Shown one piece after another: positions 29,204-44,233 of a stretch of DNA of 64,000 bases; the stretch's first letter is position 1, and each line of letters opens with the position of its first letter. The translations under genes and the position numbers were made by a program. The DNA is from Alphaproteobacteria bacterium. GTDB taxonomy: Bacteria > Pseudomonadota > Alphaproteobacteria > CALKHQ01. The notes under the pieces are model-generated. The model saw only the letters and a program-made list of their open reading frames with translations, searched no databases and was not told the DNA's origin. The DNA lies in contig CBDDFZ010000001.1 in assembly GCA_965227515.1 (NCBI GenBank), positions 3,520,001 through 3,584,000 of the forward strand, written 5' to 3'.

Positions 29204-29274
29204 TCGGCCAATAGCGGCTGGCCGGCGTGCCCCGGGTGCGCCGGCCCATCCCTTCCCCTTCATCGGACGCGGCC

Positions 29275-29784: not shown

Positions 29785-31082
29785 ACCTGGAAGTCGGCTT
29801 TTACGGGCTCGGCGCCCTCCTGGTCCTGCTGCTGCTCAGGATACCGGTGGCGCTCGCCCTGATCGCGGTCTCGTTCGGCGGCATCCTGGTCATGCTCGGC
29901 TGGTCGCCGGCGCTCGGTATCGTCTCGTCGACGCCGTACAGCTTTGTGGCGAGCTGGACGCTGAGCGCGGTCCCGATGTTTCTGCTGATGGGCTTCGTCG
30001 CCTATCACGCGGGCCTGACGGCGGGCCTGTTCGATGCCGCCAAGGTGCTGCTCAGGCGCATCCCCGGCGGGCTCGCCATCTCCTCGATTTTCGCCTGCTC
30101 CGGCTTCGCCGCCGTCTGCGGCTCCAGCCTGGCGTGCGCGGCGGCGATGGGGCGGATCGCGATCCCGGAGATGGTGCGCGCCGGCTACCGCCCCAGTTTC
30201 GCGTGCGGCTCCATCGCTGCCGGTGGCACCATCGGGGCGCTGATCCCGCCCTCGATCCTGATGATCGTCTACGGCGTGTTCGCCGAGGCGCCGATCACCG
30301 AGGTGTTCGTCGGCGGCGTCACTATCGGCATCCTGACCGCCATCGGCTATGCCACGGTGGTGCTGCTGACCTGCTGGTTGCGGCCCGACATCTCGCCGCG
30401 CCGTACGGTGGGCGACGACGTGATCTCGGTCGGGCAGGCGCTGCTCAGCATCTGGCCGGTGCTGGTCCTGGTCATCCTGGTCTTCGGCGGGCTGTTCACC
30501 GGCTTCTTCACCGCCACCGAGGCCGGCGCGGTCGGCGCGCTGGGCGCCGTCATCATCGCCGCCGCCACCGGCCGCCTGACCCGCGACGTGGTGCGCTCGT
30601 CGCTGCTGGAGACCCTGATGGTCTCCGCCTCGCTGTTCCTGATCGGCGTCGGCGCTTACATGTTCACTCGCTTCCTCGGCCTGACCGGGCTTTCCGGCTT
30701 CATCTCCTCGTTCTTCGGCGAAGGGTTCAGCTACTGGGAGCTGATGGCCATCATCGTGCTGGTCTACCTGGTGCTGGGCACGTTCATGGAGCCGTTCGGC
30801 GCGTTGCTGGTGACCCTGCCGGTGCTGCTGCCGCTGCTGAAGGCGGAGGATATCAGCCTGGTCTGGTTCGGCGTGCTGGTGGTGAAGCTGCTGGAGATCG
30901 GCATGATCACCCCGCCGGTCGGGCTGAACGTGTTCGTCATCCGCAACGTCGCCGGCAAGTACGCCAGTTTGATGCAGATCTTCGGCGGCGTGATCCCGTT
31001 CCTCGCCGCCGACCTGGTGGTGGTGGCAATCGTCGTCGCCTTCCCGCCCCTGGTGCTATTCCTGCCGGAGCTGTTGGGATAA
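29781..31082 (+). CDS. dctM: TRAP transporter large permease
   Basis: AVPMFLLMG, GTIGALIPPS, TATEAG, ITPPVG.N.F. Confidence 0.94.
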   Translation: MNLEVGFYGLGALLVLLLLRIPVALALIAVSFGGILVMLGWSPALGIVSSTPYSFVASWTLSAVPMFLLMGFVAYHAGLTAGLFDAAKVLLRRIPGGLAISSIFACSGFAAVCGSSLACAAAMGRIAIPEMVRAGYRPSFACGSIAAGGTIGALIPPSILMIVYGVFAEAPITEVFVGGVTIGILTAIGYATVVLLTCWLRPDISPRRTVGDDVISVGQALLSIWPVLVLVILVFGGLFTGFFTATEAGAVGALGAVIIAAATGRLTRDVVRSSLLETLMVSASLFLIGVGAYMFTRFLGLTGLSGFISSFFGEGFSYWELMAIIVLVYLVLGTFMEPFGALLVTLPVLLPLLKAEDISLVWFGVLVVKLLEIGMITPPVGLNVFVIRNVAGKYASLMQIFGGVIPFLAADLVVVAIVVAFPPLVLFLPELLG

Positions 31083-31443: not shown

Positions 31444-32466
31444 CTACGAAACTTCCGCCCTGACGATCGCAGCACCGTCGGCCATCGCCTTCATCTTGCC
31501 GAAGGCGACCTCGCGCGGCAGGTACTTCAGCCCACAGTCCGGCGCCACGATCACCTTGTCCGCATCCACGTGCGGCAGTGCCCGCCGGATGCGCGCCGCC
31601 ACCGTCTCCGGTGTCTCCACCGTCATGTCGGAGAGGTCCAGCACGCCAAGGATGATGGACTTGCCGCGCAGTTCCTCCAGCACCGCTGTGTCCAGGTTCG
31701 ACTGGGCGGTCTCGATGGAGACCTGGTTGCACGAGCAGCCCTTGAACTGCGGCAGGAACGAGTAGCCGGACGGCCGCTCGTGGATGATCGCGGCATAGCC
31801 GAAGCAGACATGGACGGCGGTGGTGCCGGCCGCGCCCTCCAGCGCCGCGTTCAGGGCCTCCAGCCCATATTCCTCGGCCGGCTGGGGCCGCGCCTGCATG
31901 TAGGGCTCGTCGATCTGCACCACGTCGGCACCGGCGGCGAACAGGTCGGCGATCTCCTCCCTCACCGCCTGCGCGTAGTCCATCGCCAGCGCTTTCGGGT
32001 CGCCATAGTGGTCGTCCTGCGCCTGCTGGCTCATGGTGAACGGCCCCGGCACCGTCATCTTGACCATGCGGTCGGTGTGCGCCTTCAGGAATTTCAGGTC
32101 ATCGACCTCCACCGGGTGCTTGCGCCGCACCTTGCCGACCACGCGCGGCACCGGGTTCGGGTGGCCTGAGCGGTCGAGCGCCGTGCCCGGATTGTCGATG
32201 TCCACGCCCTCAAGCGCGGTGGCGAAGCGGTTGGAGTAGCTCTCTCGCCTGATCTCGCCATCAGTGACGATGTCGAGCCCCGCCTCCTCCTGCAGCTTGA
32301 TGGCGGCAATGGTGGCGTCGTCCTGCGCCTCGGCCAGGTACTCTTCCGGGACGCGCCACAGCTCCTTGGCGCGGGTGCGCGGCGGGAAGCGGGCGGCGAG
32401 CTTGGCGCGGTCGATCAGCCATTCCGGCTGGGCATAGCTGCCGACAAGGGAGGTAGGGAGAAGCAT
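31444..32466 (-). CDS. stand-alone MetE catalytic-domain (cobalamin-independent methionine synthase II / UROD-MetE family) protein
   Basis: VGSY, TDGE.RR, PGPFT, QIDEP, Zn-ligand motifs HVC, SIE and PDCG; no N-terminal MetE half. Confidence 0.88.
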   Translation of the reverse strand: MLLPTSLVGSYAQPEWLIDRAKLAARFPPRTRAKELWRVPEEYLAEAQDDATIAAIKLQEEAGLDIVTDGEIRRESYSNRFATALEGVDIDNPGTALDRSGHPNPVPRVVGKVRRKHPVEVDDLKFLKAHTDRMVKMTVPGPFTMSQQAQDDHYGDPKALAMDYAQAVREEIADLFAAGADVVQIDEPYMQARPQPAEEYGLEALNAALEGAAGTTAVHVCFGYAAIIHERPSGYSFLPQFKGCSCNQVSIETAQSNLDTAVLEELRGKSIILGVLDLSDMTVETPETVAARIRRALPHVDADKVIVAPDCGLKYLPREVAFGKMKAMADGAAIVRAEVS

Positions 32467-32500
32467 AGTGATTCCTTGGGTTGGGGCTCCTCACCCCAAT

Positions 32501-32619
32501 GTCATGCCCGGGCCGGCCGAAGGCCGCGACCCGGGTATCCACGCGGTAGTTGCATGACGCCGGCTGAGCCAGAGAGCGTCATCGTTTGCGTGGATGCGCG
32601 GATCAAGTCCGCGCATGAC
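32501..32619. repeat. CGTC-type REP doublet, family B variant with nested hairpins
   Basis: GTCATGCCCGGG[CCGGCCGAAGGCCG]CGACCCGGGTATCCACGC ... GCGTGGATGCGCGGATCAAGTCCGCGCATGAC; internal ATGACGC/GCGTCAT stem. Confidence 0.85.
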
Positions 32620-32657
32620 AATGAGGACGAGGGCATGACGACGGTGTCTTGGGCGGC

Positions 32658-34190
32658 CTACATCGCGAACAGGTCGTGGTCGACGCCGGCGGCCTGGAAG
32701 ATGTAGTCGCGGCTGGCCTCCAACTCGGCGCGCAGCGCCGCGATGTCGACGTCCAACAGTTCGCCCTGCCACTTCTTCACCTGGCCGGCGACCATGACGG
32801 TGTCGACATTGCTGCGCTCCATCAGCGTCACCACGGCGCCGGCGGCGTGGTTCAGCGGCGCGACGTTGATCGCCTCGGCATCGAGCAGCACGATGTCGGC
32901 CGCCTTGCCCGGGGTCAGCGAGCCGGTGACGTTGTCCAGCTTCAGGCCGCGTGCGCCCTCGATGGTGGCGTGGTGCAGGGCATCGACCGGCTGCATCAGC
33001 GCCGGATAGTCCTCCGCCCCCGACAACGCCGCCTCGTTGACGAACATGCGCTGCAGGGTGATCAGGCTGCGCATCTGGGTGAACATATCGGCGGTCATGG
33101 TGCATTCCACGTCCGACGACAGCGACATGCTGACACCCATGTCGATGGCCTTCTGGATCGGCGGCGTGCCGTGGCGCATGTGCATCTCGATCGGCACCGC
33201 CAACGACACGTGCGCGCCAGCATCGGCGGCCGCCTGCCATCCGAAATCCGACATGTCGGTCATGTGAATGAAGATGTTGTCGGGCCCGAACATGCCGGCC
33301 TGGGCAAGCTCGTCGAACACCGGCTGCATGCCGAAGGTGTTGACGACATGGGCTGCAATCGGCAGGTCGAGCTCGCGGCCGATCCGCCACGCCTCCTCGT
33401 ACATCGGCAGGTAGATCTCGCCGCCCATCACCATGGTCAGAAGCTGGTCCGACGACGAGAAGTACTGCTCCTTCAGGCGGGCGGCATCGCCGGGATACTC
33501 CGCCTGCTCGCCCCACCCCTCGAAATAGCCGAACACCGCGCGGCGGCCGGTGTCGCGCAGGCCCTCCACCGCCGCATCGGAATGCGCCGCGCTGTGGTGG
33601 ATCTGGCTGACGTCCATCACCGTGGTCACGCCGGCGTCGAGCTGCGAGAGCCCGCCGAACAGCTCGTTGATGTAGACGTCCTCCGGCCGGTAGACCATGG
33701 AGAACTTCTGCAGGATGGTCTCGAAGTAGTTGTTGGCGTTCACCGGGCGGCCGTCGTTGACCAGAATGCCGTGGGCAAGCTGGCTGCGGAGCGCGGTCTC
33801 GAACTGATGGTGGTGGGTATCGATGAAGCCCGGAATCACGATCTTGCCATTGGCCTCGATGACCGCCGCCTCGGGTGCCTCGATGTTGGCGCCGACCTCG
33901 ACGATGGTGCCGCCCTCGACCAGCACGTCGCCGACGGCGAAATTGCCAACCTGATCGTCCATCGACATCACGACGCCGCCTTTGATCAGCACCTGGCGGC
34001 CCGGCTCGTTGATGCCGGTCGGCAGGGCGGCCTTGATGACCTCCGCACCGGCTGCCGCGCCGGGCTTGGCGATGCCGCCGGCGAGCAACGCACCACCGGC
34101 CGCGGCCGCCGTCAGCACGGTTCGCCGGCTGGCCCCGCCGTGCGCGTCGGTCGAATGCGACGTTCCTGAGGATTCACCGAGCTTGCACAT
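32658..34190 (-). CDS. metal-dependent amidohydrolase (TRZ/ATZ deaminase-like) with Tat signal
   Basis: SRRTVL followed by a hydrophobic signal; PGFIDTHHH, AAH, FIH, SSD, GSLTPGKAAD. Confidence 0.88.
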   Translation of the reverse strand: MCKLGESSGTSHSTDAHGGASRRTVLTAAAAGGALLAGGIAKPGAAAGAEVIKAALPTGINEPGRQVLIKGGVVMSMDDQVGNFAVGDVLVEGGTIVEVGANIEAPEAAVIEANGKIVIPGFIDTHHHQFETALRSQLAHGILVNDGRPVNANNYFETILQKFSMVYRPEDVYINELFGGLSQLDAGVTTVMDVSQIHHSAAHSDAAVEGLRDTGRRAVFGYFEGWGEQAEYPGDAARLKEQYFSSSDQLLTMVMGGEIYLPMYEEAWRIGRELDLPIAAHVVNTFGMQPVFDELAQAGMFGPDNIFIHMTDMSDFGWQAAADAGAHVSLAVPIEMHMRHGTPPIQKAIDMGVSMSLSSDVECTMTADMFTQMRSLITLQRMFVNEAALSGAEDYPALMQPVDALHHATIEGARGLKLDNVTGSLTPGKAADIVLLDAEAINVAPLNHAAGAVVTLMERSNVDTVMVAGQVKKWQGELLDVDIAALRAELEASRDYIFQAAGVDHDLFAM

Positions 34191-34235
34191 ATCTTCCTCC
34201 CAAGAAGGTTTCGTTGCCTTGGTTCGTGTTGGCCG

Positions 34236-35039
34236 TCAGTTGCGCAGCACCGTGGCCAGGATCGGATAGCGGCCCATCTGGTGCGCGATGTGGGATGCCG
34301 TCACTCTCAGGTCCGGCAGGCGCTCGCACACAAGCTGCTCAGGCGTGACCATGCCGGTGTAGCCGGAGCTGTTGAGCGAGGCGATGGTGTGCCCGTCGGG
34401 GTCGCGCACCGGCACCGCGAGCGCCGTGATGCCGTAGTCGAGCTGGTCGACGGTGGTGGCATAGCCTTCCGCGCGCACTTTCATAAGTTCCGCCCGCAAC
34501 GCCTTCTTATCTATGCAGGTTTTCACCGTCAGCGCTTGTGGCTCCAGGCTATCCAGCCAATCGTCCAGGTCGGCATCGTCCATCGCCGCGACCAGAATGC
34601 GCCCCATCGAGGTGGCGAACGCGGGATAGCGCGCGCCGACCACGGCGGCGGCACGGCGGGCACGCTGTTGTGAGTAATGGGCGATGTAGATGACGTGATG
34701 GCCGTCCAGGGTCGCCACGGAGGACGCATCCCCGAAGCGCTCGACGACCCCGCGCAGATCCGGCTGCAGTACCTCGTCGATGCGGGCGGAGAAGTAGAAG
34801 GCCGAGCTCAGCGCCATGATCTTCGGGCGCAGGTGGAAGCGCTTGCCCTCCTGCCCCACGTAGCCCAGCGCCTTCAGCGTGATCAGGCTGCGGCGGGCGG
34901 CGGCGGGCGACAGGCCGACGCGGCGGGCAACCTCGCTCAGCGTCATATCCGGATGCCCGTCATCGAAGCACTCCAGGATCGCCAGCCCCTTGGCCAATGC
35001 CTCGACGAACTCGGCCGGTTTGTCGCCGTCGACCCCCAC
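34236..35039 (-). CDS. IclR family regulator (PcaR/PobR type)
   Basis: EFVEALAKGL..L, TLSEVA HTH, PAFATSMGR. Confidence 0.93.
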   Translation of the reverse strand: MGVDGDKPAEFVEALAKGLAILECFDDGHPDMTLSEVARRVGLSPAAARRSLITLKALGYVGQEGKRFHLRPKIMALSSAFYFSARIDEVLQPDLRGVVERFGDASSVATLDGHHVIYIAHYSQQRARRAAAVVGARYPAFATSMGRILVAAMDDADLDDWLDSLEPQALTVKTCIDKKALRAELMKVRAEGYATTVDQLDYGITALAVPVRDPDGHTIASLNSSGYTGMVTPEQLVCERLPDLRVTASHIAHQMGRYPILATVLRN

Positions 35040-35044
35040 GGGCC

Positions 35045-35908
35045 TCAGCCCTCGGGCGCCAGCACGAAATCGAACTCCAGCATCGCGTCCGGCTTGACCG
35101 CCAAGTCGAAGCCCAAGTCGTCTACGTTCTTGGCCGGCTTCACCTTGGCAATCAGAGACTTGCGCACGCCGAACACGGCGTCGTTGTCCAGGTACTCGGT
35201 GCTGTCGAAGAACACTTCGGTGGTGATGGCGCGCTTGCCGGGCGCGCTGACGATGTAGTGCAGGTGCGCGGCCCGCCAGGCGTGGCGGTTGCCGGCGCGC
35301 AGCAGGTTCCCGACAGGGCCGTCATAGGGCACGGTGTAGGGCTTCGGCAGCACCGTGGTGTAGTAATAGCGGCCCTGGTCGTCGCAGGTGAACTTCCCGC
35401 GCAGGTCGTACTTGTCCTGCCCCTTCTCCTGCTCCTGGATCGGATAGGTGCCGGAACCGTCAGCCTGCCAGGTGTCGACCAGCGCCCCCGGCAGCGGATT
35501 ATGCAGGGTGTCGGTGACCTGGCCGTGGACCAGCACGCTGGCACCGTCGCGACCGTCGGCAAGGTCCGTGCCCAGGGCATAGGGCTGGGCATCGCTCAGA
35601 TAGAACGGCCCCAGATTGGAGCCCTCGGTCGCACCGCCACGGGTGTTGATCATGTCGACCAGTGCCGAGAACCCCAGCACGTCCGACAGCAGGATGAACT
35701 CGTGCCGCTCCGGGGTCGAGATCTGCCCGCAGTCGTACAGGAAGTTCAGGATCCCGATCCATTCCTCGTGGTTCAGATTGTGCTCGCGGGTGAAGTCGTG
35801 CAGGTGGTCGATCAAGCCGTGCAGCAATTGCTCGAACCGACTGCCAGGTTCCGTCTTGAACGTGTCTTTGACGGCCTGAGTAACCGAATACTGGTTGATG
35901 TCGCGCAT
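35045..35908 (-). CDS. intradiol ring-cleavage dioxygenase (hydroxyquinol/catechol 1,2-dioxygenase family)
   Basis: HLHDF.RE, EFILLSDVLG, LGPFY, Fe ligands Y (GTY), Y (PYTVP), H and H (RAAHLH); GGGAGG RBS. Confidence 0.92.
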   Translation of the reverse strand: MRDINQYSVTQAVKDTFKTEPGSRFEQLLHGLIDHLHDFTREHNLNHEEWIGILNFLYDCGQISTPERHEFILLSDVLGFSALVDMINTRGGATEGSNLGPFYLSDAQPYALGTDLADGRDGASVLVHGQVTDTLHNPLPGALVDTWQADGSGTYPIQEQEKGQDKYDLRGKFTCDDQGRYYYTTVLPKPYTVPYDGPVGNLLRAGNRHAWRAAHLHYIVSAPGKRAITTEVFFDSTEYLDNDAVFGVRKSLIAKVKPAKNVDDLGFDLAVKPDAMLEFDFVLAPEG

Positions 35909-36011
35909 CTCGTCCTCCCGCGCCTGGCACTGTGCTTGTTCTTCGTATGTCGCCAGAATCTGCCTTGACTCAACGGTAAACCGGCGCCTACTCTTCGGCA
36001 AGAGAAAAACA

Positions 36012-36026
36012 TTTCGCAATGCGAAA
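36012..36026. promoter_or_regulatory. putative IclR/PcaR-type operator
   Basis: Perfect palindrome TTTCGCA-A-TGCGAAA in the divergent intergenic region. Confidence 0.7.
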
Positions 36027-36055
36027 ACATGCTTGCGAACGATTGGGGAGGCCGA

Positions 36056-36868
36056 ATGCGGATCGGGAAGCAGGATCAAGCCTTCACCGCCATCGCGACA
36101 TCCGATGCCGAGAGCATCACGGTGCGCGGGCAGGACCTGTGCCGCGACCTGATCGGCAAGATCGATTTCACCGACTATTTCTGGCTGCTGGTCCTGGGCG
36201 AGCGCCCCACCGAACCGCAGCGCAAGATGATGGATGCCTGCCTGGTCGCGATTGCCGAGCACGGGTTGGTGCCGTCGGTGCAGGCGGCCCGCATGACGCT
36301 CGCCGCGGGACCGGACGCCTGGCAGGGCGCGATGGCCGCCGGCCTGCTCGGCATGGGCAGCGTTGTCGCCGGCAGTTCGGAGGCGGCCGCCCTCTTCCTG
36401 CATGAGGTGATGGAAAAGGCGAAGGCCGACGGCACCGATATCGAGGCCGCCGCCATCGGCAGCCTGAACGACCTGAAGGCGGCGAGGAAGAAGGTGCCGG
36501 GGCTTGGCCACCCGCAGCACAATGCGGGCGACCCGCGGGCCAACCGCCTGCTCGCCATCGCCGACGAGCTTGGCGTCTCCGGCGACCATGTCGGCACTCT
36601 GCGCACCCTGGCCGAGCACGCACCCGGCATCATCAACCGGCCGCTGCCGATCAATGTTTCCGGCGCGATTCCGGCGGTGATCCTGGACGCCGGCTGGCCG
36701 TTGCAGGCGATCAAGGCGGTGCCGCTGCTGGCCCGCGCGGCCGGCCTGTCCGCCCACCTCTACGAGGAGAGCCTGCGCTCCATCGGCTTCATCATGTCCC
36801 ACAAGGCCGACCTCGCCATCGACTATGACGGCAAGGCGTCCGAGAACCCCAAAGAAGCCGCGGAGTAG
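36056..36868 (+). CDS. citryl-CoA lyase-like protein (citrate synthase fold)
   Basis: I.VRG.DL..DLIG, EHG, VPGLGHP, DPRA, INVSG, AR.AGL.AH..EE. Confidence 0.85.
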   Translation: MRIGKQDQAFTAIATSDAESITVRGQDLCRDLIGKIDFTDYFWLLVLGERPTEPQRKMMDACLVAIAEHGLVPSVQAARMTLAAGPDAWQGAMAAGLLGMGSVVAGSSEAAALFLHEVMEKAKADGTDIEAAAIGSLNDLKAARKKVPGLGHPQHNAGDPRANRLLAIADELGVSGDHVGTLRTLAEHAPGIINRPLPINVSGAIPAVILDAGWPLQAIKAVPLLARAAGLSAHLYEESLRSIGFIMSHKADLAIDYDGKASENPKEAAE

Positions 36869-36876
36869 CTGGCGAG

Positions 36877-38022
36877 ATGGTCAAGATCCTGAAGGACGTT
36901 CGCGTCATCGAGCTCAGCACCTACATCACCGGCCCCGCCGCCGGCATGCACCTAGCCGACCTGGGCGCCGACGTGATCAAGGTGGAGCGGCCCGGCACCG
37001 GCGATCCGTTCCGCGCGTTCAAGGGCGGGCTCTACTCGCCGCACTACCAAACCTACAACCGCAACAAGCGCTCCATCGCGCTCGACACCAAGGACCCGGC
37101 GGACCTGGCGGTGCTGCACGACCTGGTCGCCGGCGCCGATGTGTTCCTGCAGAACTTCCGGCCCGGCGTGGCGGAGAAGCTGGGCGCCGGGGAGGACGAC
37201 CTGCGCAAGGTGCGGCCCGATCTGATCTATTGCGCGATTTCCGGCTTCGGCCAGTCCGGCCCGTCGCGCGACCGCCCCTCCTACGACACGGTGGCGCAGG
37301 CGGCGAGCGGCTATCTGCGCCTTTTGATCCCGCCGGAGAAGCCGCGCGTCATCGGCCCGGCCATCGCCGATGCCGTGACCGGCCAGTACGCCGCACTCGC
37401 CATCCTGGCCGCCCTTTTGGAGCGCAGCAAGACCGGCAAAGGCCGGCGCATCGACATCTCGATGCTGGAGGCGATGTGCCACTTCAACCTGGACAGCTTC
37501 ACCCACTACTACTCCGTGGGCGAAGTGATGGGCCCGCTGTCGCGCCCGGTCGTCTCCCAGTCCTATGCGTTCGAGTGCGGAGACGGCCGGTGGATCGCCA
37601 TCCACATGTCCTCGCCGACCAAGTTCTGGGAGGGGCTGCTGGAAGCGACCGACCAATGGCCCCTGAACGACGACCCGCGGTTCAACGAGCGGCTGGAGCG
37701 GATCAAGCACCAGGACGCCCTGATCGAGCACTTCACGCCGGTGTTCAAGACCGACACCCGCGACGCCTGGTGTGCCAAGCTGCTGGCGGCCGGGGTGCCG
37801 CACTCCCCCGCCTACGACAGCAACGAGGCGCTGGAGGACCCACAGGCCCAGCACCTGAACATCAAGATCTCGGCGCCGCACGCCGAGATGGGCACCTTCA
37901 CCACGGTTCGCCCGCCCTATAACTTCGATGGCGCGCCCGAGCTGGACGTGCTGCCACCGCCGACGCTGGACGAACACGGCGCGGAAATCCGCGAGGAGCT
38001 CAAGCGCAAGAAGGCCGGCTAG
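36877..38022 (+). CDS. family III CoA-transferase (CaiB/BaiF)
   Basis: LADLGADVIKVE.PG.GD, NRNKRS, NFRPG, ISGFG..GP, PP.L.EH. Confidence 0.94.
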   Translation: MVKILKDVRVIELSTYITGPAAGMHLADLGADVIKVERPGTGDPFRAFKGGLYSPHYQTYNRNKRSIALDTKDPADLAVLHDLVAGADVFLQNFRPGVAEKLGAGEDDLRKVRPDLIYCAISGFGQSGPSRDRPSYDTVAQAASGYLRLLIPPEKPRVIGPAIADAVTGQYAALAILAALLERSKTGKGRRIDISMLEAMCHFNLDSFTHYYSVGEVMGPLSRPVVSQSYAFECGDGRWIAIHMSSPTKFWEGLLEATDQWPLNDDPRFNERLERIKHQDALIEHFTPVFKTDTRDAWCAKLLAAGVPHSPAYDSNEALEDPQAQHLNIKISAPHAEMGTFTTVRPPYNFDGAPELDVLPPPTLDEHGAEIREELKRKKAG

Positions 38023-38062
38023 AACCCGGCACCGGGGGGAGGAAAACGATGAGACAGGCAAC

Positions 38063-38467
38063 ATGAGCAGCGACGACAACCCGACGTCGGTACCCGCCGC
38101 CGCCGTGCTGGAAGCCAGCAAGGAGATGCTGCAGAAGCAGCTCTACGCCATCTTCACGTCGCCGACGAACGGGCTGGGCCCGGTGTTCGCCAACATCGAG
38201 GCGCACCTGAATTTCCAGGTCCAGTTGGAGAAGGACGGCATCATGTTCGCCGCCGGACCGCTGTGGACCGACGACGAGCAGAGCTGGGAAGGCGAAGGCA
38301 TGGTCATCGTGCGCGCCGCCTCACGGGCCGACGCCATCGCCATCGCCGAGCGCGATCCGATGCACACGAGCGGGGCGCGGACGTTCACGGTCCGGCCCTG
38401 GCTGGTCAACGAGGGCACCGTCACGGTGCGCCTGGACTACTCTTCGCAGCAATTCACCATTCAATAA
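38063..38467 (+). CDS. YciI family protein
   Basis: Conserved His (EAHL), AAGP, G...VRA.S..A......DP motif. Confidence 0.85.
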   Translation: MSSDDNPTSVPAAAVLEASKEMLQKQLYAIFTSPTNGLGPVFANIEAHLNFQVQLEKDGIMFAAGPLWTDDEQSWEGEGMVIVRAASRADAIAIAERDPMHTSGARTFTVRPWLVNEGTVTVRLDYSSQQFTIQ

Positions 38468-38498
38468 AATCAGGCAACGAACCTAGGGAGGAGTTCTC

Positions 38499-39578
38499 AT
38501 GAAATTGCTGGTTGGTGCCGTTACGGCCGCAACCTGCGCGCTACCCGTATCGGCGTGGGCGCAGGAAACGATCAACCTGACCGTGGCATCCAGCCACCCC
38601 ACGGTGGTGCCCTGGGTCGGCATGATCCAGACCCACTTCATGGCGCGGACCGACGAGATCCTCGCCGAATCCGGCAACTACGTGATCGAGTGGAACGAGG
38701 CCTTCGGCGGCCAGCTCTACCGCGCCAACGCCACCCTGACCTCGGTCGAGGAAGGCATCACCGATATCGGCTGGGTGTTCTCGTTCCTGGAGGCGGCCAA
38801 GCTGCCGTTGAGCCAGGTGTCGTCGAACGCGCCCTTCTCCACCGCCAATCCGCCGGTGCTGCTGGACGTGATGGAGGAGTTGCTGGAGACCAACGAGGCG
38901 TTCCTGGAGGAGTGGGAGAGCCATAATCTGAAGGTCCTGGGCCTGACCGCCACCGACCTATACGACATCTACCTGAAGGAGCCGATTGACGGCATCGCCG
39001 GCATCGACGGCCTGAAGCTGTCGGCCCCCGGCGTGCTCGGCAACTGGCTGCGCGGCACCGGCGCCAATGCCGTCGACGGCGCGCTGACCACGTTTTACAC
39101 CGACATCCAGACCGGCGTGTCCGACGGCGTGCTGACCCTGGCCTTGGGCGCACTGCCGATCAAGCTCTACGAGGTGGCGCCCTACATCCACCGCTTCGAT
39201 GCGGGCGCGGCATTCTCCGGTGCGGTCGCCATCAACCGCGACACCTGGGACGGCCTGCCCGAGGAAGTGCAGAACGCCATGATCGAGGCCGGCAAGTACT
39301 ACACCGAATCCCACGGCCAGGACCTTGTCGAGCGGCACGAGTTCGCCCTCAACAAGATGGTCGAGTTGGGCGCCGAGCAGGACCCGCCAGTGACCATCAT
39401 CGTGATGCCGGCCGAGGAGCGCCAGGCCTGGGTCGACTCCTTGCCGAACCTGGGGGCCGAGTGGGCCGCCCCGCTGGAGGAGCGTGGCCTGCCGGCGCTC
39501 GACTTCATGCGCGCTTATATGGACGGCCTGCGTGCCCATGGCGAGGAGCCGGTGCGCGCCTGGGACGAGGAACTCTGA
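38499..39578 (+). CDS. dctP: TRAP transporter substrate-binding protein
   Basis: Signal peptide, FGGQL, YTDIQTGV.DG, W..LP.EVQ; GLKLS in place of G.K.R. Confidence 0.88.
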   Translation: MKLLVGAVTAATCALPVSAWAQETINLTVASSHPTVVPWVGMIQTHFMARTDEILAESGNYVIEWNEAFGGQLYRANATLTSVEEGITDIGWVFSFLEAAKLPLSQVSSNAPFSTANPPVLLDVMEELLETNEAFLEEWESHNLKVLGLTATDLYDIYLKEPIDGIAGIDGLKLSAPGVLGNWLRGTGANAVDGALTTFYTDIQTGVSDGVLTLALGALPIKLYEVAPYIHRFDAGAAFSGAVAINRDTWDGLPEEVQNAMIEAGKYYTESHGQDLVERHEFALNKMVELGAEQDPPVTIIVMPAEERQAWVDSLPNLGAEWAAPLEERGLPALDFMRAYMDGLRAHGEEPVRAWDEEL

Positions 39579-39597
39579 TCACGCACGCCTTCGCGTC

Positions 39598-40173
39598 GTG
39601 ACCGATCTCCACGATACGGGTGGCGCCCCGCCTCAGGGGCGCCACCTGCCGCTTCCCATGCGGCTGTGGCACGGCGTCGTCGAGAGCCTGGCGGCACTCG
39701 GCACGGCGCTGATCGTCGGCCTGATGCTGATCATCTGCGCCGACATCGTGGCGCGAAACCTGTTGGGGGCGTCGCTGCCCCTGGTCTCCGAACTCGGTGC
39801 GTTGCTGCTGGTGATGATCGTCGCCCTGCAACTCGCCGCGGCCGTGCGCGCCGACCGCCTGGCACGCACGGAAATCTTCTTCCGGCCGTTCACCCGCAAG
39901 CATCCCAGGGCCGGCGGCGTGCTGGCCGCCCTGTTCAACCTGGCTGGTGCCGCGATGGTCGGCGGCATGGCGTGGGCCACCGTCGGCACGCTGGTGAAAG
40001 ACTGGGGTTCCGACGAGTTCATCGGCACGCCAGGTCTCGGCACCCTGCCGACATGGCCGTTCCGGGCGCTGATCTTGCTTGGGCTCGCGGTTGCCGCCAT
40101 CGAGTTCGTGGTGCGCAGCGTGCAGGCCGTGCGCACGACCGTCGCGGACACCGGTCCAGAGCCAGGACCGTGA
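39598..40173 (+). CDS. dctQ: TRAP transporter small permease
   Basis: ADIVARNL, four TM segments, P.WP; start site uncertain (39598 GTG or 39658 ATG). Confidence 0.85.
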   Translation: MTDLHDTGGAPPQGRHLPLPMRLWHGVVESLAALGTALIVGLMLIICADIVARNLLGASLPLVSELGALLLVMIVALQLAAAVRADRLARTEIFFRPFTRKHPRAGGVLAALFNLAGAAMVGGMAWATVGTLVKDWGSDEFIGTPGLGTLPTWPFRALILLGLAVAAIEFVVRSVQAVRTTVADTGPEPGP

Positions 40174-41483
40174 GCCCACTCGAAATCGGGCTGGTTGCGA
40201 TCGCCGCTCTGCTGTTCCTGATCTATCTGGGACTGCCGATCGGCATCGGCATGCTCGTGGTCTCGTTCGTTGGCGTGTCTTTCATCCGCAACGACGCGGT
40301 CGCGATGAACATGCTGGGCGCCGTCGCCAACGACAGCCTGGAGGAATACCTGTTCGCGGTGGTGCCCCTGTTCGTGCTGATGGGGCTGCTGGTCACCGTT
40401 TCCAATGTCGGCAAGGACACGTTCGATGTGTTCGAGCGGCTGCTCAGGCGCATCACCGCCGGCCTGGGCATGGCGACCGTGTTCGCCAACGCCGTGTTCG
40501 CGTCCATCACCGGCATTTCCATCGCGTCCGCGACCGTGTTCAGCCGGGTCGCGGTGCCGGAGATGACCCGCCACGGCTATTCCAAGAAGTTCGCCACCGG
40601 CGTGGTTGCCGGCTCGTCCGTCCTCGGCATGCTGATCCCGCCATCGCTGCTGATGATCGTTTATGCCGTGCTGGCCGAGGAATCGGTGGGGCGCATGTTT
40701 CTGGCCGGCGTCGGGCCGGGCCTGCTGCTCGCCATCGCCTTCTCAGGCACCATCCTGCTGATGGCGTGGCGACGGCCGTCCATGGTGTTCGACACCAAGA
40801 ACGACACCGAAGGCTACGAACACTTCACCGCGCTTCAGATGATGTGGAAGGCGGTGCCGATCCTGGCGCTCATGCTGCTGGTGCTGGGCGGGCTCTACGG
40901 CGGGTTCCTGAACCCGACCGAGGCTGGCGCCGCCGGTGCATTCGGCGCCCTGGTCATCGCGTTGCTGCGCAAATCGTTGTCGCGGACACGGTTCTGGAAG
41001 CTGCTGGTCGAGACCGGACAGATCACGGTCTCGGTGTTGTTTCTGATCCTGTCCGCCACCCTGTTCTCGCGCATGCTGGCACTGTCCGGCGTGCCGCACG
41101 AACTGGCCACCATCTTTCTGGAAAGCCCGATCGGCCCGTATGGGTTCCTGATCGTCTACCTGCTGCTGATCATCGCGCTCGGCTGCCTGATCGACTCGAT
41201 TTCGATCATGCTGATCGTGCTGCCGATTGCCTTGCCGGTGGCCGAGCAGGCGCACTTCGACCTGATCTGGTTCGGCGTGCTCACCGTCGTGGCGGTCGAG
41301 ATGGGGCTGCTGACACCACCTTTCGGGCTGTCGGTCTACACCATCAAGTCCGCGATCAACGATCCCGACCTCAAGGTCGGCGACATCTTCCGTGGCGCCC
41401 TGCCCTTCGTCTTTGCCATGCTGGTGTCGCTCGCCATTCTGGTCGCGGCGCCGGCGATCTCCACCTGGCTTGCTTACTTATGA
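40170..41483 (+). CDS. dctM: TRAP transporter large permease
   Basis: VVPLFVLMG, LGMLIPPS, PTEAG, LTPPFG; GTGA overlap. Confidence 0.94.
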   Translation: MSPLEIGLVAIAALLFLIYLGLPIGIGMLVVSFVGVSFIRNDAVAMNMLGAVANDSLEEYLFAVVPLFVLMGLLVTVSNVGKDTFDVFERLLRRITAGLGMATVFANAVFASITGISIASATVFSRVAVPEMTRHGYSKKFATGVVAGSSVLGMLIPPSLLMIVYAVLAEESVGRMFLAGVGPGLLLAIAFSGTILLMAWRRPSMVFDTKNDTEGYEHFTALQMMWKAVPILALMLLVLGGLYGGFLNPTEAGAAGAFGALVIALLRKSLSRTRFWKLLVETGQITVSVLFLILSATLFSRMLALSGVPHELATIFLESPIGPYGFLIVYLLLIIALGCLIDSISIMLIVLPIALPVAEQAHFDLIWFGVLTVVAVEMGLLTPPFGLSVYTIKSAINDPDLKVGDIFRGALPFVFAMLVSLAILVAAPAISTWLAYL

Positions 41484-41494
41484 CCGGAGCACAC

Positions 41495-42028
41495 ATGACC
41501 AAGCTGTTGTTTTTCGTAGGTAGTTTGCGCGCGGCGTCGTCCTCGCGGGCCGTTGCCACCACCCTCGCCGAGCGGATATCGGACAAGGCCGAAACCGCGT
41601 TCGCCGATATCGCGGGCCTGCCCCATTACAACGCAGATATCGAGAACGACCCGAACGTCGCGGCGCTGATAGACGCCATCGCAGGCGCGGATGGCCTGGT
41701 GTTCGTGACGCCGGAGTACAACTATTCGGTGCCGGGTGTGCTGAAGAACGCCATCGACTGGGCATCGCGCCCGGCCTACCAGTCCGTGTTCAAGGACAAG
41801 CCGTGCCTGGTGATGACCACGTCGGGCGGCGCGATGGGCGGCGTGCGCACGCAATCGCACCTGAAGTACATCCTGAACGGCATGCTGGCGCGGCTGTTCC
41901 CGACCATGGAGGTCATCGTCCCGATGGCCAACAAGAAGGTTGAGGATGGCCGGCTAACCGACCAGGACACCATCGATTTCGCCGGCAAGGCGCTGGATGG
42001 TTTCATTGCATGGATCGAGCAGGCTTAG
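41495..42028 (+). CDS. NADPH-dependent FMN reductase (ChrR/quinone reductase-like flavoprotein)
   Basis: GSLR..S, VTPEYNYS.PG.LKNAIDW.SR, GG.R.Q. Confidence 0.92.
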   Translation: MTKLLFFVGSLRAASSSRAVATTLAERISDKAETAFADIAGLPHYNADIENDPNVAALIDAIAGADGLVFVTPEYNYSVPGVLKNAIDWASRPAYQSVFKDKPCLVMTTSGGAMGGVRTQSHLKYILNGMLARLFPTMEVIVPMANKKVEDGRLTDQDTIDFAGKALDGFIAWIEQA

Positions 42029-42192
42029 CTCCTGCACCTGCGTCGGCACAGCGTGTCGTCGCCCCTTCACAAACACCGTTGTCATCCTTGACCGCGTGAA
42101 ACGCCCTGCCGAGCCGGCGCGTTGTTGTGGCTGTCTCTACTGGGTTCGCACATCTCGAATTGGGCGGCTCGATGTCTGCGAAAAGAAAGAAC

Positions 42193-42369
42193 TGTCGTCC
42201 TCGCCCTTGTGGCGAGGACCCATTGTTGTCCGAAATCTCAATAGTTTGGGGTGAATCGGAATTTGAAATGGCGTCCGGGCGGACATAAGGGACCACTCTG
42301 CCAACCCTTGTTGGCACGGACCCCGGACTGCCCCGCAAATGGGCCCTCGCCACAAGGGCGAGGGCGACG
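42193..42369. repeat. composite palindromic repeat, family A copy 3
   Basis: TGTCGTCCTCGCCCTTGTGGCGAGGACCCAT, 115-bp spacer homologous to copy 2, ATGGGCCCTCGCCACAAGGGCGAGGGCGACG; between convergent genes. Confidence 0.92.
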
Positions 42370-42468: not shown

Positions 42469-43173
42469 TCAGCCAACAATGGCGGCGCGGTGCCGGGCCA
42501 GCCAGTCGGTGATCACGGCCACGGTTTCGCCTGGCTGTTCCACCGGCATGAAGTGGCCGGCGTTGTCGATCACCGTCAGCTCCGTATCGGGCGCCAGTGC
42601 CGCGATCTCGCGGTGCTGCGGTTCCGGCGACCACGCGTCCTGCGCGCCGGTCATCAGCAGAATTGGGCACGTGATACTGGGCAGATAGGCCCCTGCATCC
42701 GGGCGGGCGACCAGCGCACGGATCTGGCGCTCGTGCACGTCCGCGCCGGAGGCCAGCACCATCTCGGTCAGGTCGGCGACCAGCGCGGTGTCGCTCAGAC
42801 GCGCCGGGTTCAGCATCGGCGGAATCCAGTCCGCCGCCAGCGCGTCCATGTCGGCATGGCCCAGGTCGATCTTCGCCTGCCGCTTCTCCGGCTCGCCCGG
42901 CTTGAGAGGGCCGTGACCGGTGTTTGCCAGCACCATGCCGCGCACGCGCTCCGGCGTCTGGTGCGCCATCTCCATCGCGACACGCCCGCCCATGGAGTGA
43001 CCCACAGGCACGATGGGCCCCTCGGTCTCGGCCAACAGCCGAGCCGCCATGCCCTGCAGGGTGTCGTCACGGGTGACGTCCGCGTCGTGCACCGGCAGGT
43101 CGACCGCATCGGCGAGCGCCTTCCACACCCGCGCGTCGGAAAGCAGGCCGGGGATCAGGACAAGTGTGGTCAT
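42469..43173 (-). CDS. alpha/beta fold hydrolase
   Basis: LIPGL, GHSMGG nucleophile elbow, G.QD, AGH; alternative GTG start at 43200 overlaps the upstream stop. Confidence 0.9.
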   Translation of the reverse strand: MTTLVLIPGLLSDARVWKALADAVDLPVHDADVTRDDTLQGMAARLLAETEGPIVPVGHSMGGRVAMEMAHQTPERVRGMVLANTGHGPLKPGEPEKRQAKIDLGHADMDALAADWIPPMLNPARLSDTALVADLTEMVLASGADVHERQIRALVARPDAGAYLPSITCPILLMTGAQDAWSPEPQHREIAALAPDTELTVIDNAGHFMPVEQPGETVAVITDWLARHRAAIVG

Positions 43174-43192
43174 GCCGTTGGCTCCGTCGCGC

Positions 43193-44083
43193 TCATCCAC
43201 CGACCACGAAACGCGCGGCGGCGCGCATCGTGTCGCCCGGCGCCACGGTCACCGTGCCGGTGGGCGGCGTCTCCTCGCCGCGTTCGTGCAGGTTGAAGGC
43301 GTCGGTGGTGTTCGACACCGGCTCGACGCAGAAAAAGTTCTGACCCGGCGGGGTGTAGACCACCAGATGGCCGAACGGCGGCCCGGCCTCAATGGTGATG
43401 CTGACGCCACGGTCGGGCCACGCCACCACCGCGCGCCCGTCCCAGCCGGCGAAGCAGTTGGCGAGGTCGGTGCCCTCCACCCGGCGCGCTTCGCTGAAAT
43501 CCCAGCGCGCGGGGATCGGCGTCGCCCCGGTGTGCAGGTATTCCTCGTTCACGTTGAACACGTCGGTCGCGTTGAACTGCAGCGTCGCGTCCGGCGTCCA
43601 GTCGTACCAGGGGTGGACGCCCAGCCCGGCCGGCATCGGATCGTCGGACTCGTTGGTAATAGACATCTCGACGGTCAGCGCGTCCGGCGCGAGGCTGTAG
43701 GTCTGATGCGCCGTGTACGCCCATGGCCACCCGCGCCCGGGATTGGGCAGCGCCAGCCGCACCGAGGTGGCGTCCGCATGCTCCACCTGCCACGGGTTCT
43801 GCCAGCCGTCGCCGTGGATCGCGTTCTTCTCCGGCGGCAGGTTGATGGCGAGCTGGTGGGTGCGGCCAAGGAAGGTCAGCTTGCCGCGCTCGATCCGGCC
43901 GGAGAACGGCACCAGCGGGAAGCTCGCCACGCCCATCGGGTCGCGGTTGGCGATCACCTCCGGCGTCGCGGCACGGAACAGGTCGAAGCCGTCGTCGCGG
44001 CGGAAGTGGCTGAGCGCACCGCCGGCGGCCGGTGCCACGCCTGCCGACAGCGGCCCGGCGGAGATGGTCAGCACGTCGCTCAT
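43193..44083 (-). CDS. aldose 1-epimerase family protein
   Basis: FPLVPFSGRI, IHGDGW, G.G.HPW, FCVEP. Confidence 0.9.
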   Translation of the reverse strand: MSDVLTISAGPLSAGVAPAAGGALSHFRRDDGFDLFRAATPEVIANRDPMGVASFPLVPFSGRIERGKLTFLGRTHQLAINLPPEKNAIHGDGWQNPWQVEHADATSVRLALPNPGRGWPWAYTAHQTYSLAPDALTVEMSITNESDDPMPAGLGVHPWYDWTPDATLQFNATDVFNVNEEYLHTGATPIPARWDFSEARRVEGTDLANCFAGWDGRAVVAWPDRGVSITIEAGPPFGHLVVYTPPGQNFFCVEPVSNTTDAFNLHERGEETPPTGTVTVAPGDTMRAAARFVVGG

Positions 44084-44106
44084 CGCGTTCCCCAAAACCC
44101 TTTGAA

Positions 44107-44196
44107 GTCATGCCCGCACTTGTTGCGGGCATCCACGTCTTCCTGGCCGCTCAAGCGGCCATCTCGTGGATGGCCAGGACAAGCCCGGCCATGACG
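44107..44196. repeat. CGTC-type REP doublet, family B
   Basis: GTCATGCCCGCACTTGTTGCGGGCATCCACGTCTT...TGGCCGC-TCAA-GCGGCCA...GTGGATGGCCAGGACAAGCCCGGCCATGACG; left arm identical to the 7210 copy; intra-operon position. Confidence 0.9.
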
Positions 44197-44233
44197 ATTG
44201 TATTGGTGGCCATCGCCTGCGCCGAAAGACACG

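Follow-up and report, generated by a model that had tools for sequence, protein, structure and literature searches.

The window analysed here is a stretch of 64,000 nucleotides from an alphaproteobacterial genome (contig CBDDFZ010000001.1, positions 3,520,001 to 3,584,000). Between its positions 31444 and 42028 it carries a divergently oriented gene cluster, in which an intradiol ring-cleavage dioxygenase and an IclR-family regulator on the left arm lie opposite a citrate-synthase-fold protein named ‘citryl-CoA lyase’ (hereafter the CCL-like protein) and a family III CoA-transferase on the right arm. The G+C content of the window is 67%, and raw lists of its open reading frames (ORFs) are full of spurious frames; genes were chosen by their third-position G+C content and then confirmed with Pfam and NCBIfam. 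The eleven genes and the palindrome listed below, identified by sequence, Pfam, NCBIfam and a motif search, lie in the same two arms and at the same positions as in a preliminary description made from the letters of this DNA. In our view, the region is best explained as one IclR-controlled, divergently transcribed catabolic unit, whose invariant core consists of the regulator and the dioxygenase on one side and the citrate-synthase-fold enzyme and the CoA-transferase on the other.

31444-32466, minus strand: zinc protein with the MetE C-terminal domain (Meth_synt_2), 340 aa, accessory (Pfam PF01717, 5.8e-36)
32658-34190, minus strand: Amidohydro_1 metallohydrolase (TRZ/ATZ-like, PRK08204) with a twin-arginine leader, accessory (Pfam; NF006056, 416 bits)
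34236-35039, minus strand: IclR-family regulator, probably of the PcaR/PcaU/PobR type (Pfam HTH_IclR and IclR_C)
35045-35908, minus strand: intradiol ring-cleavage dioxygenase, hydroxyquinol 1,2-dioxygenase subgroup, 287 aa (Dioxygenase_N and Dioxygenase_C)
36012-36026, no strand: 15-bp palindrome TTTCGCAATGCGAAA, probable IclR operator, inside a 147-bp divergent promoter region (motif search)
36056-36868, plus strand: citrate-synthase-fold protein named ‘citryl-CoA lyase’, CCL-like (PF00285, 8e-23; NF004868)
36877-38022, plus strand: family III (CaiB/BaiF/Frc-type) CoA-transferase (PF02515, 2.7e-104, residues 5-367)
38060-38467, plus strand: YciI-family protein with a TftG-like fold (PF03795)
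38499-39578, plus strand: TRAP transporter protein DctP (Pfam DctP)
39655-40173, plus strand: TRAP transporter protein DctQ (Pfam DctQ)
40170-41483, plus strand: TRAP transporter protein DctM (Pfam DctM)
41480-42028, plus strand: NADPH-dependent FMN reductase (flavodoxin-like), probable quinone reductase (PF03358, 9.8e-38)

The genes of the right arm are spaced by 8 to 76 bp or overlap by 4 bp, and terminator-like hairpins are found 3' of the FMN reductase gene (42107-42119 and 42197-42219). The dioxygenase gene starts at position 35908, the 585-aa ORF at 35045-36802 being a high-GC read-through, and the CCL-like gene starts at position 36056 (MRIGKQ..., kept in relatives) and not at 36029. 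Another G+C-rich hairpin (39619-39646, with 11-bp arms and a 6-base loop) is located between the dctP stop at 39578 and the dctQ start at 39655, where it may act on the dctP portion of the mRNA by stabilisation or attenuation.

The conservation of this arrangement was assessed in plasmids and genomes. The CCL-like protein was used as a tblastn query against plasmid records, of which 138 matched, and the genes of unannotated records were taken from our own ORF calls and Pfam. A scan in which each species was represented by a single genome, and for which six aligned CCL-like proteins served as query, yielded 415 confirmed relatives. The best 80 of these 415 loci (71-84% CCL identity) were combined with the window and five plasmid loci to a set of 86 sources. 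The survey covered 20 kb per genome, and the presence of genes near the CCL-like gene was determined by tblastn. The CoA-transferase was present in 82/86 and the IclR regulator in 80/86 sources. An intradiol dioxygenase was found in 52 sources, LigB in 25 and a LigA-like partner in 26. DctP and DctM were detected in 66 and 65 sources, respectively, the amidohydrolase in 60 (it is missing from the other 26), the FMN reductase in 57, YciI in 53, and the MetE-like protein in 27; the latter also occurs in Aminobacter pUSP2. Hence, the most constant genes are those of the CCL-like protein, CoA-transferase, IclR regulator and dioxygenase, and the remaining ones vary. All-against-all clustering of approximately 1300 predicted proteins from the 86 sources revealed no further family in more than ten of them. 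The minor families comprised FAH hydrolases (eight sources, in five of them within the operon after the FMN reductase), SDR (seven), GCV_T (five) and MBL hydrolases (three) as well as ABC components including ATPases, ADH_zinc proteins and transporters.

In 72 of 78 loci, which were from different species and had an adjacent pair of CCL-like and CoA-transferase genes, a ring-cleavage dioxygenase gene was located beside the IclR gene. Neither dioxygenase type was found in the other six, of which four (L056, L067, L069 and L078) are only 3.2-6.9 kb long. A comparison of genome neighbourhoods, as suggested in the preliminary description, thus showed that the families do co-occur, namely in 80 species-level genomes and several plasmids. 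With this co-occurrence, and with a conserved operator common to both arms (see below), the view that the two arms form one conserved unit was borne out.

The palindrome at 36012-36026 is the sole site of its kind in the window; its two matches, compared to 0.07 expected, are the two strands of one site. Among the 86 sources, 73 have TTCG-N5-CGAA no more than 70 bp upstream of the CCL-like start, compared with a background of 0.003 per 70 bp in the remainder of these loci. We consider this strong evidence for a conserved operator, which is presumably bound by the adjacent IclR protein. This protein has both the HTH_IclR and the IclR_C domain, and its score with TIGR02431 (247.7 bits) is below the cut-off of 284.75. 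A promoter scan of the divergent region found no sigma-70-like site. The same scan listed the palindrome as a terminator-like hairpin, which is unlikely given its conservation as TTCG-N5-CGAA.

Several plasmids carry variants of the cluster. Plasmid pMM593 of Martelella mediterranea has the same right arm with a CCL-like protein of 78% identity; in its left arm, which also encodes IclR and the amidohydrolase, an ‘extradiol ring-cleavage dioxygenase’ and its small partner stand in for the intradiol enzyme. The arrangement in Rhizobium sp. SSA_523 is as in pMM593. Sinorhizobium sp. B11 has IclR, FMN reductase, CCL, CoA-transferase, LigB, a small protein, the amidohydrolase and a branched-chain-type ABC importer, and Aminobacter sp. 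MSH1 has FMN reductase, IclR, DctPQM, a CocE/NonD hydrolase, the MetE-like protein, CCL, CoA-transferase, LigB and a small protein. Among distant relatives (50-57% CCL identity), of which the Aminobacter and Sinorhizobium loci are the LigAB variants, the trio of dioxygenase, CoA-activating enzyme and CCL-like protein persists. In Cupriavidus necator N-1 and C. metallidurans CH34, CCL and IclR are accompanied by an AMP-forming ligase and by an intradiol dioxygenase that shares 26-29% identity with the enzyme of the window, and on a plasmid of Variovorax paradoxus the genes for CoA-transferase, intradiol dioxygenase and CCL follow one another in one row. The Cupriavidus, Variovorax, Aminobacter and Sinorhizobium loci therefore show that each partner can be swapped for a non-homologous analogue (LigAB or an AMP-ligase) while the trio stays together.

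Two of these neighbourhoods deserve a separate description. On the C. metallidurans CH34 megaplasmid (locus L090, 5551-6725), genes for a 106-aa ABM-family protein and an isochorismatase-family hydrolase precede those for CCL, AMP-ligase and intradiol dioxygenase. The ABM family has a small alpha+beta-barrel fold of the same kind as YciI, and a small barrel protein may be a recurring component of such clusters. On a Niveispirillum plasmid (locus L089, 5764-14963), an IclR/CoA-transferase/CCL module adjoins a canonical ligC-ligB-ligA-Amidohydro_2-LysR-RraA(ligK-like) cluster and a TonB-dependent receptor, a neighbourhood which could tie the CCL/CoA-transferase pair to oxalomesaconate-type intermediates.

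The intradiol enzyme of the window had its best PDB matches with 8r2v (1.9e-61), 3n9t (PnpC; 2.8e-61) and 1tmx (3.9e-56). Hydroxyquinol-type structures ranged from 1.9e-61 to 8.9e-55, as opposed to 1.8e-36 or weaker for catechol 1,2-dioxygenases, and all NCBIfam catechol equivalogs remained below their cut-offs. Judged from these matches, the enzyme belongs to the hydroxyquinol 1,2-dioxygenase subgroup of the intradiol dioxygenases. A literature search on PDB 8R2V returned nothing relevant. Residues Y155, Y191, H215 and H217, which we take to be the iron(III) ligands, are conserved in 47 sequences with spacings of 36, 24 and 2 residues.

The dioxygenase slot beside the IclR gene is occupied by an intradiol orthologue in 48 of the 78 loci and by a LigAB-type extradiol enzyme, which is non-homologous, in 24. 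We mapped the two types onto a maximum likelihood tree (quick search) of concatenated CCL and CoA-transferase sequences from the 78 loci. The dioxygenase type changes at least seven times on this tree, with at least six of the changes forced by well-supported branches, and both types are present in the Rhodobacterales as well as in the Hyphomicrobiales. The other cluster genes are unchanged across the exchange, and with neither type did we find an extra dehydrogenase, hydratase or aldolase in the 86 sources. The best solved relative of the LigB variant is the gallate dioxygenase DesB (6.6e-20), ahead of LigB (2.5e-16). In NCBIfam the variant matches generic class III models and that of gallate dioxygenase, without reaching the cut-off of any of them. 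Since the rest of the cluster stays constant through the swaps, the simplest reading is that the two dioxygenase types are functionally equivalent in this context. In vicinal triols, cleavage beside the diol falls between two hydroxylated carbons, so that intradiol and extradiol enzymes yield the same dicarboxylate. The repeated exchange with everything else constant therefore suggests that the ring substrate is most likely a vicinal triol. Hydroxyquinol, the ring substrate implied by the preliminary description, is hard to reconcile with repeated transitions from the intradiol to the LigAB type, which suit a vicinal triol better.

The CCL-like protein scored 309 bits with NF004868 (cut-off 193) and matched the true citryl-CoA lyase of Hydrogenobacter (6hxp; E 2.9e-30), with which it shares fold and length. 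In an alignment with 6hxp and citrate synthases, H69 (the His of the A-E-H-G segment), G-H152-P-x-H155, D-P-R161 and R227 are kept; H69, the G-H...D-P-R motif and R227 presumably form the oxaloacetate site of the citrate-synthase fold. In contrast, the GSAHGG motif of 6hxp (GPLHGG in the Bacillus citrate synthase) is changed to GSVVAG in the window protein (V104), and NVDGAI of 6hxp (NVDF in the Thermus citrate synthase) to NVSGAI (S202). We take V104 and S202 to occupy the positions of His274 and Asp375 of pig citrate synthase, which are responsible for enolising acetyl-CoA, and the S202 position to be the counterpart of D1026 of human ATP-citrate lyase (ACLY). The accessible part of a study on ACLY describes D1026 as essential and its role as debated (PMC10115795). 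Two residues that define citryl-CoA lyases, the catalytic His and Asp, are thus lacking in the CCL-like protein, whereas the oxaloacetate-site motifs are in place.

These replacements are a family trait. Among 89 cluster homologues, 87 have Ser at the Asp position (NVS) and 88 share the extra His (GHPxH). An exhaustive search of 1.84 billion representatives retrieved 2626 relatives at E ≤ 0.001, of which 1162 had E ≤ 1e-10 and 172 had E ≤ 1e-30. Only three of the best 150 family representatives, many of which are fragments, had both the His and the Asp; in most of these 150, Val, Phe, Ile or Tyr stands in place of the His, and likewise Ser, Thr or Ala in place of the Asp. In a protein collection clustered at 90%, 4713 of 8000 scored candidates were relatives of the CCL-like protein at E ≤ 1e-10, the best 120 being mostly metagenome-derived. 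As His and Asp are lost in this family, its chemistry may differ from that of citryl-CoA lyase. The protein nevertheless resembles an enzyme with binding sites for a 2-oxo-dicarboxylate moiety and a CoA ester, and in 82/86 sources its gene adjoins that of a CoA-activating enzyme. Its previous designation as a citryl-CoA lyase-like retro-aldol lyase is not supported in that form, because the family has neither the His nor the Asp with which citrate synthase and true citryl-CoA lyase act on acetyl-CoA. Most family members that annotation pipelines call ‘citryl-CoA lyase’ or ‘citrate synthase’ are devoid of the canonical His and Asp, and the name is probably misleading in genome-based calls of enzymes of the reverse tricarboxylic acid (TCA) cycle.

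The CoA-transferase is assigned to family III by its full-length CoA_transf_3 domain and a conserved Asp: D165, which we take to be the catalytic Asp, is retained in 70 sequences. Its best NCBIfam models are dicarboxylate CoA-transferases, all of them below their cut-offs, and no equivalog cut-off was reached.

The accessory proteins provide hints on the compounds that enter the pathway. The closest PDB entry to the MetE-like protein is 3rpd (1.1e-57), and H219-x-C221, E252 and C311, presumably its zinc ligands, are conserved in 23 homologues. Unlike a cobalamin-independent methionine synthase (MetE), it consists of the C-terminal domain only (340 aa versus approximately 750) and has no N-terminal folate-binding domain, and it scores below the cut-offs of all methionine-synthase equivalogs. 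It is probably a zinc-dependent transferase of alkyl or methyl groups to a thiol. In five loci it is replaced by a GCV_T protein (456-474 aa) encoded on the left arm or nearby. The five GCV_T proteins scored 528-567 bits on the model of the syringate O-demethylase DesA (cut-off 800) and 471-525 bits on that of LigM (cut-off 580), and these DesA/LigM-like proteins are the best single clue that methoxylated aromatic acids might feed the pathway.

A structure model of YciI (pLDDT 89.5) was compared with solved structures by Foldseek. HI0828 ranked first (3.2e-6), and TftG was third and fourth (4lbp, 2.7e-5; 4lbh, 6e-5; TM by target 0.71-0.74, 24% identity), followed by ClcF. TftG is a 5-chlorohydroxyquinol dehydrochlorinase and ClcF is muconolactone-isomerase-like. 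Residues H49, D71, D99 and H102 of YciI (numbering from 38060) are invariant in 23 sequences. The flavodoxin-like FMN reductase family includes quinone reductases. Together, the TftG-like YciI, FMN reductase, MetE-like and DesA/LigM-like genes point to a methoxylated or trihydroxylated substrate. The earlier proposal of a link to methoxylated or polyhydroxylated aromatics is thus strengthened by the TftG-like YciI, the full zinc site of the MetE-like protein and the DesA/LigM-like proteins of five loci.

The amidohydrolase has conserved metal ligands (H126-x-H128, H281, H309 and D360), and its solved relatives are triazine and purine deaminases or dechlorinases. Sequence comparison gave no informative solved relative for this protein or for YciI. 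The N-terminus of the amidohydrolase contains the twin-arginine stretch ‘SRRTVLTAAA’ (window sequence SRRTVLTAAAAGGALLAGG). Twin arginines followed by a hydrophobic stretch were found in 29 of 55 homologues and were absent from the other 26; the designation ‘Tat amidohydrolase’ therefore suits the window protein with its predicted leader, but not the family at large. A Cys-rich ‘MC[RK]LC’ start is shared by 52 of the 55 members, with or without the twin-arginine motif. For the TRAP binding protein DctP there is no close solved relative (best match 4n6d, 6.3e-10). The iron, metal and zinc ligands and the Asp of the CoA-transferase are all kept, which suggests that the enzymes of the cluster are competent.

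Genes of the classical lower pathways were not found with the cluster. None of the eleven genes encodes a maleylacetate reductase, a muconate cycloisomerase or a PcaIJF-type protein according to Pfam and NCBIfam, in agreement with what had been reported for this cluster before, and no match to maleylacetate reductase, PcaIJ or thiolase models was obtained in the part of the window's ORFs that was scanned. Across the 86 sources, no maleylacetate reductase was among the families named from the clustering, and neither was a family of 4-oxalomesaconate (OMA) tautomerases, hydratases or aldolases. A tblastn search of the same sources with the RraA-type aldolase and Amidohydro_2 proteins of Niveispirillum retrieved no LigK or LigJ/I homologue at E ≤ 1e-6.

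We compared the cluster with four described systems. The hydroxyquinol branch of the beta-ketoadipate pathway (TftH/TftE with the dechlorinase TftG) shares a hydroxyquinol-type intradiol enzyme, a TftG-like YciI, a quinone-reductase-type flavin reductase and an IclR-family regulator. However, maleylacetate reductase was not one of the families named for the clusters described here, and neither PcaIJ/PcaF nor muconate cycloisomerase was found within the cluster of the window; their dioxygenase is interchangeable with a LigAB-type enzyme, and its constant partners are the CoA-transferase and the citrate-synthase-fold protein. The 4,5-cleavage pathways of gallate and protocatechuate (DesA, LigM, DesB/GalA/LigAB, LigU/GalD, LigJ/GalB, LigK/GalC) are similar in that one third of the clusters are of the LigAB type, nearest to DesB, that DesA/LigM-like proteins are present in five loci, and that their carboxylic-acid substrates suit TRAP or ABC uptake. 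In contrast to these pathways, the 86 sources have a CoA-dependent step and not an OMA tautomerase, hydratase or aldolase, most clusters including that of the window are intradiol, and the LigB variant and the demethylases are below the equivalog cut-offs. The Hydrogenobacter citryl-CoA lyase (6hxp) and the citrate-synthase-homology module of ATP-citrate lyase have the same fold, length and oxaloacetate-site residues and likewise a CoA-activating partner. They differ in that their His and Asp are Val and Ser here, where an extra His (GHPxH) is present, and in that the partner here is a CoA-transferase or AMP-ligase and not a citryl-CoA synthetase, in a catabolic context beside a dioxygenase. 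Finally, pairs of CoA-transferase and lyase for C5-dicarboxylates (itaconate, mesaconate, citramalate) resemble the cluster in having a dicarboxylate-type family III CoA-transferase directly beside a putative C-C-cleaving enzyme, and stand-alone CCL/CoA-transferase/transporter modules also exist. The lyases of these C5 routes belong to the HpcH/CitE family and do not have the citrate-synthase fold. Furthermore, the pair studied here is coupled to an aromatic dioxygenase and has no conserved hydratase.

A further parallel is the fungal gallate pathway via 1,2,3,5-tetrahydroxybenzene, in which, as far as its accessible description goes, an autoxidisable polyhydroxybenzene is also cleaved, an FAH-family hydrolase is involved (FAH proteins occur in 8/86 of our sources), and the ring-fission product 5-hydroxydienelactone needs an unexplained ‘activation’ step and a small protein (PMC10832562). 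That pathway employs a DUF3500 ring-cleavage protein and a flavin monooxygenase that produces the substrate of the latter, neither of which is found here, and the accessible part of its description includes no CoA step (PMC10832562). In approximately 8.4 million open papers and preprints (subscription journals not covered), we found no description of a dioxygenase coupled to a CCL-like protein and a CoA-transferase, and two genome papers retrieved there name citryl-CoA lyase only in passing. The suggestion that the cluster matches no characterised pathway thus holds within this literature. Apparently, the cluster is an aromatic catabolic operon of a known type with an undescribed lower part and a repurposed citrate-synthase-fold enzyme.

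The contrast between the constant IclR, dioxygenase, CoA-transferase and CCL-like genes and their changing periphery indicates a central pathway with variable funnelling steps. Because the CoA-dependent pair is the sole conserved candidate for handling the ring-fission product, we favour the order of uptake, trimming and reduction, ring cleavage, CoA activation, and conversion. In this scheme, the TRAP system would import an anionic polyhydroxylated aromatic compound, which would be partly methoxylated or otherwise substituted. Variable accessory enzymes would then trim the substituents, namely the amidohydrolase and the MetE-like protein in the window and DesA/LigM-like proteins, CocE/NonD or MBL hydrolases elsewhere. 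The FMN reductase and the TftG-like YciI could keep the easily oxidised triol in its reduced form, or produce it from the quinone, until the dioxygenase opens the ring. Subsequently, the family III CoA-transferase would form the CoA thioester of the acyclic polycarboxylate, with no need for maleylacetate reductase or the OMA hydratase/aldolase route, and the citrate-synthase-fold enzyme would turn this thioester into central metabolites. The order of the steps, the substrate and the chemistry are what we infer from the observed gene content, conservation, dioxygenase exchange, operator and altered active site, and we rate the chances of this scheme as about half.

The substrate should be anionic (TRAP, ABC or TTT importers), have methoxylated precursors, carry a 1,2,3- or 1,2,4-trihydroxy pattern, and give the same product with both dioxygenase types. 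Our best guess is an acid of the gallate/3-O-methylgallate type, giving 4-oxalomesaconate. The hydrate of 4-oxalomesaconate is 4-carboxy-4-hydroxy-2-oxoadipate, i.e., citrate with a pyruvyl arm replacing the acetyl arm. This likeness to citrate might provide a rationale for an enzyme that retains the oxaloacetate pocket but not the residues that enolise acetyl-CoA. Second choice is hydroxyquinol or a compound of the 1,2,3,5-tetrahydroxybenzene type, imported as the hydroxyquinone, since the nearest relatives (hydroxyquinol dioxygenases and TftG) and the reductase would fit. Protocatechuate and 3-O-methylgallate as the ring substrate itself were rejected on paper, as intradiol and LigAB-type cleavage give different products from them. 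Gallate degradation with a canonical cleavage of the citryl-CoA lyase type would yield acetyl-CoA and 2,4-dioxoglutarate on paper, which we judged unattractive; gallate was kept with a different bond being cleaved.

It is tentatively possible, although we put the likelihood somewhat below even, that the CCL-like protein and the CoA-transferase constitute a third lower pathway for ring-fission products beside the beta-ketoadipate and hydratase/aldolase routes, in which a CoA thioester is made and a different bond is broken. For example, a pyruvate-type 2-oxoacid would be released from 4-carboxy-4-hydroxy-2-oxoadipyl-CoA, or from a 3-oxoacyl-CoA such as 2,4-dioxoadipyl-CoA or maleylacetyl-CoA.

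Several points weigh against a CoA-dependent continuation of ring cleavage. Six of the 78 loci show no dioxygenase, though four of them are short. In Paraburkholderia, only LysR, CCL, CoA-transferase and an MFS transporter are encoded together, with no dioxygenase, and in loci L075, L077 and L081 the CCL-like gene has no CoA-transferase beside it; from these layouts it follows that the pair also works outside aromatic catabolism. Our view was of 20 kb per genome, and downstream genes may be located elsewhere in the genomes. The nearest characterised relatives of the intradiol enzyme, by sequence, act on hydroxyquinol and not on gallate or pyrogallol, and an intradiol gallate dioxygenase did not turn up in the searches made. 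The CCL-like protein, which has neither of the two acetyl-CoA residues, is perhaps no lyase. Roughly half of the amidohydrolases have no Tat motif, and the predicted compartment of this step is therefore ambiguous. From an energetic perspective, a CoA route from 4-oxalomesaconate has no obvious gain over the known hydratase/aldolase route. Moreover, no such route could be written that ends only in standard metabolites, and no CoA route was fully satisfying for any candidate. The proposed steps draw on sequences and models throughout.

As an alternative, the CoA-transferase and the citrate-synthase-fold enzyme might activate and shorten a carboxylated side chain of an aromatic acid before ring cleavage, so that the dioxygenase would catalyse the last step of the cluster and its product would be taken over by beta-ketoadipate or meta-cleavage enzymes encoded elsewhere in the genome. 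Aryl-substituted acids are frequent substrates of family III CoA-transferases, an AMP-forming ligase takes the place of the transferase in Cupriavidus, the exchange of intradiol and extradiol enzymes would need no common product, and the module of Niveispirillum adjoins a complete canonical ligC-ligB-ligA-Amidohydro_2-LysR-RraA cluster. Nevertheless, CCL and CoA-transferase are the most conserved genes and the peripheral enzymes vary, which is the pattern of a central and not of a funnelling pathway. In addition, each of the at least seven swaps between closely related loci would have to be accompanied by a suitable downstream pathway elsewhere, no downstream ring-fission genes were observed beside the cluster in the 86 sources, and there is no conserved aldehyde- or 2-oxoacid-processing enzyme for the side-chain product. 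We thus regard an upper-pathway role of the pair as unlikely and prefer its action on the ring-fission product.

According to another explanation, the substrate is of the dihydroxypyridine/hydroxypyridone type, as in the pyd and kpi pathways, and the amidohydrolase, whose solved relatives include triazine and purine deaminases, removes or opens nitrogen functions. In the accessible part of the report on these pathways, the 3,4-dihydroxypyridine dioxygenase PydA is a LigB-family enzyme, KpiC an Amidohydro_1 protein of 475 aa, and KpiD an FAH-family hydrolase (PMC7356986). The clusters described here hold, as judged by family, LigB-type, Amidohydro_1 and sometimes FAH genes, and the rhizobial variants have a branched-chain-amino-acid-type ABC importer. 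Yet two thirds of the loci possess an intradiol catechol-type enzyme, and we know of no such enzyme that acts on pyridinediols. The DesA/LigM-like aryl O-demethylases indicate methoxybenzoates, the amidohydrolase is missing from 26/86 sources, and the pyd/kpi pathway, as far as its accessible description goes, has no CoA step (PMC7356986). Taken together, an N-heteroaromatic substrate appears improbable. Least probable of all is that one regulator controls two functions with no shared pathway, an operon for uptake and CoA-dependent use of an organic acid beside a detoxifying hydroxyquinol dioxygenase, as might be assumed from the stand-alone CCL, CoA-transferase and transporter genes in Paraburkholderia and from a preprint that, in its accessible part, reads chqB without maleylacetate reductase in many marine SAR116 genomes as detoxification (10.64898/2026.07.17.739263), since the association is kept in 72/78 loci and outlives non-homologous replacement (LigAB for the intradiol enzyme, AMP-ligase for the transferase), the Variovorax dioxygenase gene lies between the CoA-transferase and CCL genes, and one putative operator serves both divergent promoters.

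The regions that flank the cluster in the window were also inspected. Directly upstream (27161-31082), an Amidohydro_2 protein, whose sole solved relative is the uncharacterised 3irs (BB4693), is followed by a second DctPQM TRAP system. These genes are beside the cluster in 0/85 other sources and were rejected as part of the unit, being found in the window only (1/86). Downstream, the genes at 42469-50706 encode a PcaD-like alpha/beta hydrolase (42469-43200, just outside the cluster), an aldose-1-epimerase-like protein, a sugar ABC transporter, an SDR protein, a galactonate-dehydratase-like enolase and GntR. Membership in the unit was likewise rejected for the PcaD-like hydrolase and the aldose-epimerase-like protein, each of which occurs beside the cluster in 1/86 sources, the window itself. 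This region is a sugar-acid cluster with no relation to the ring-cleavage/CoA unit. Farther away, a C-P lyase operon for phosphonate use (14743-20484) encodes PhnG, PhnH, PhnI, PhnJ, an ABC-type ATPase (PhnK-like) and PhnM. At the other end of the window (57734-63979), a molybdenum hydroxylase of the xanthine dehydrogenase family (2Fe-2S, FAD and MoCo subunits, 59281-62979), an amidase (57734-59239) and a LysR regulator may form a unit for the catabolism of an N-heterocycle or amide.

The genomes that bear the cluster span the Rhodobacterales, Hyphomicrobiales and others, and the CCL-like family is abundant. The ‘citryl-CoA lyase’ label on a large family without the canonical residues puts genome-based inferences of the reverse TCA cycle at risk. 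With its remodelled active site, the citrate-synthase-fold enzyme may catalyse a new kind of reaction and, if the pathway proposed here is true, would add a new reaction type to the citrate synthase superfamily. Such a pathway would also explain the ‘orphan’ hydroxyquinol-type dioxygenases that occur without maleylacetate reductase in many marine Alphaproteobacteria. If their CoA-dependent continuation is true, genes of the chqB type would help to gain carbon from polyphenols of lignin, tannin or algal origin and would not serve detoxification.

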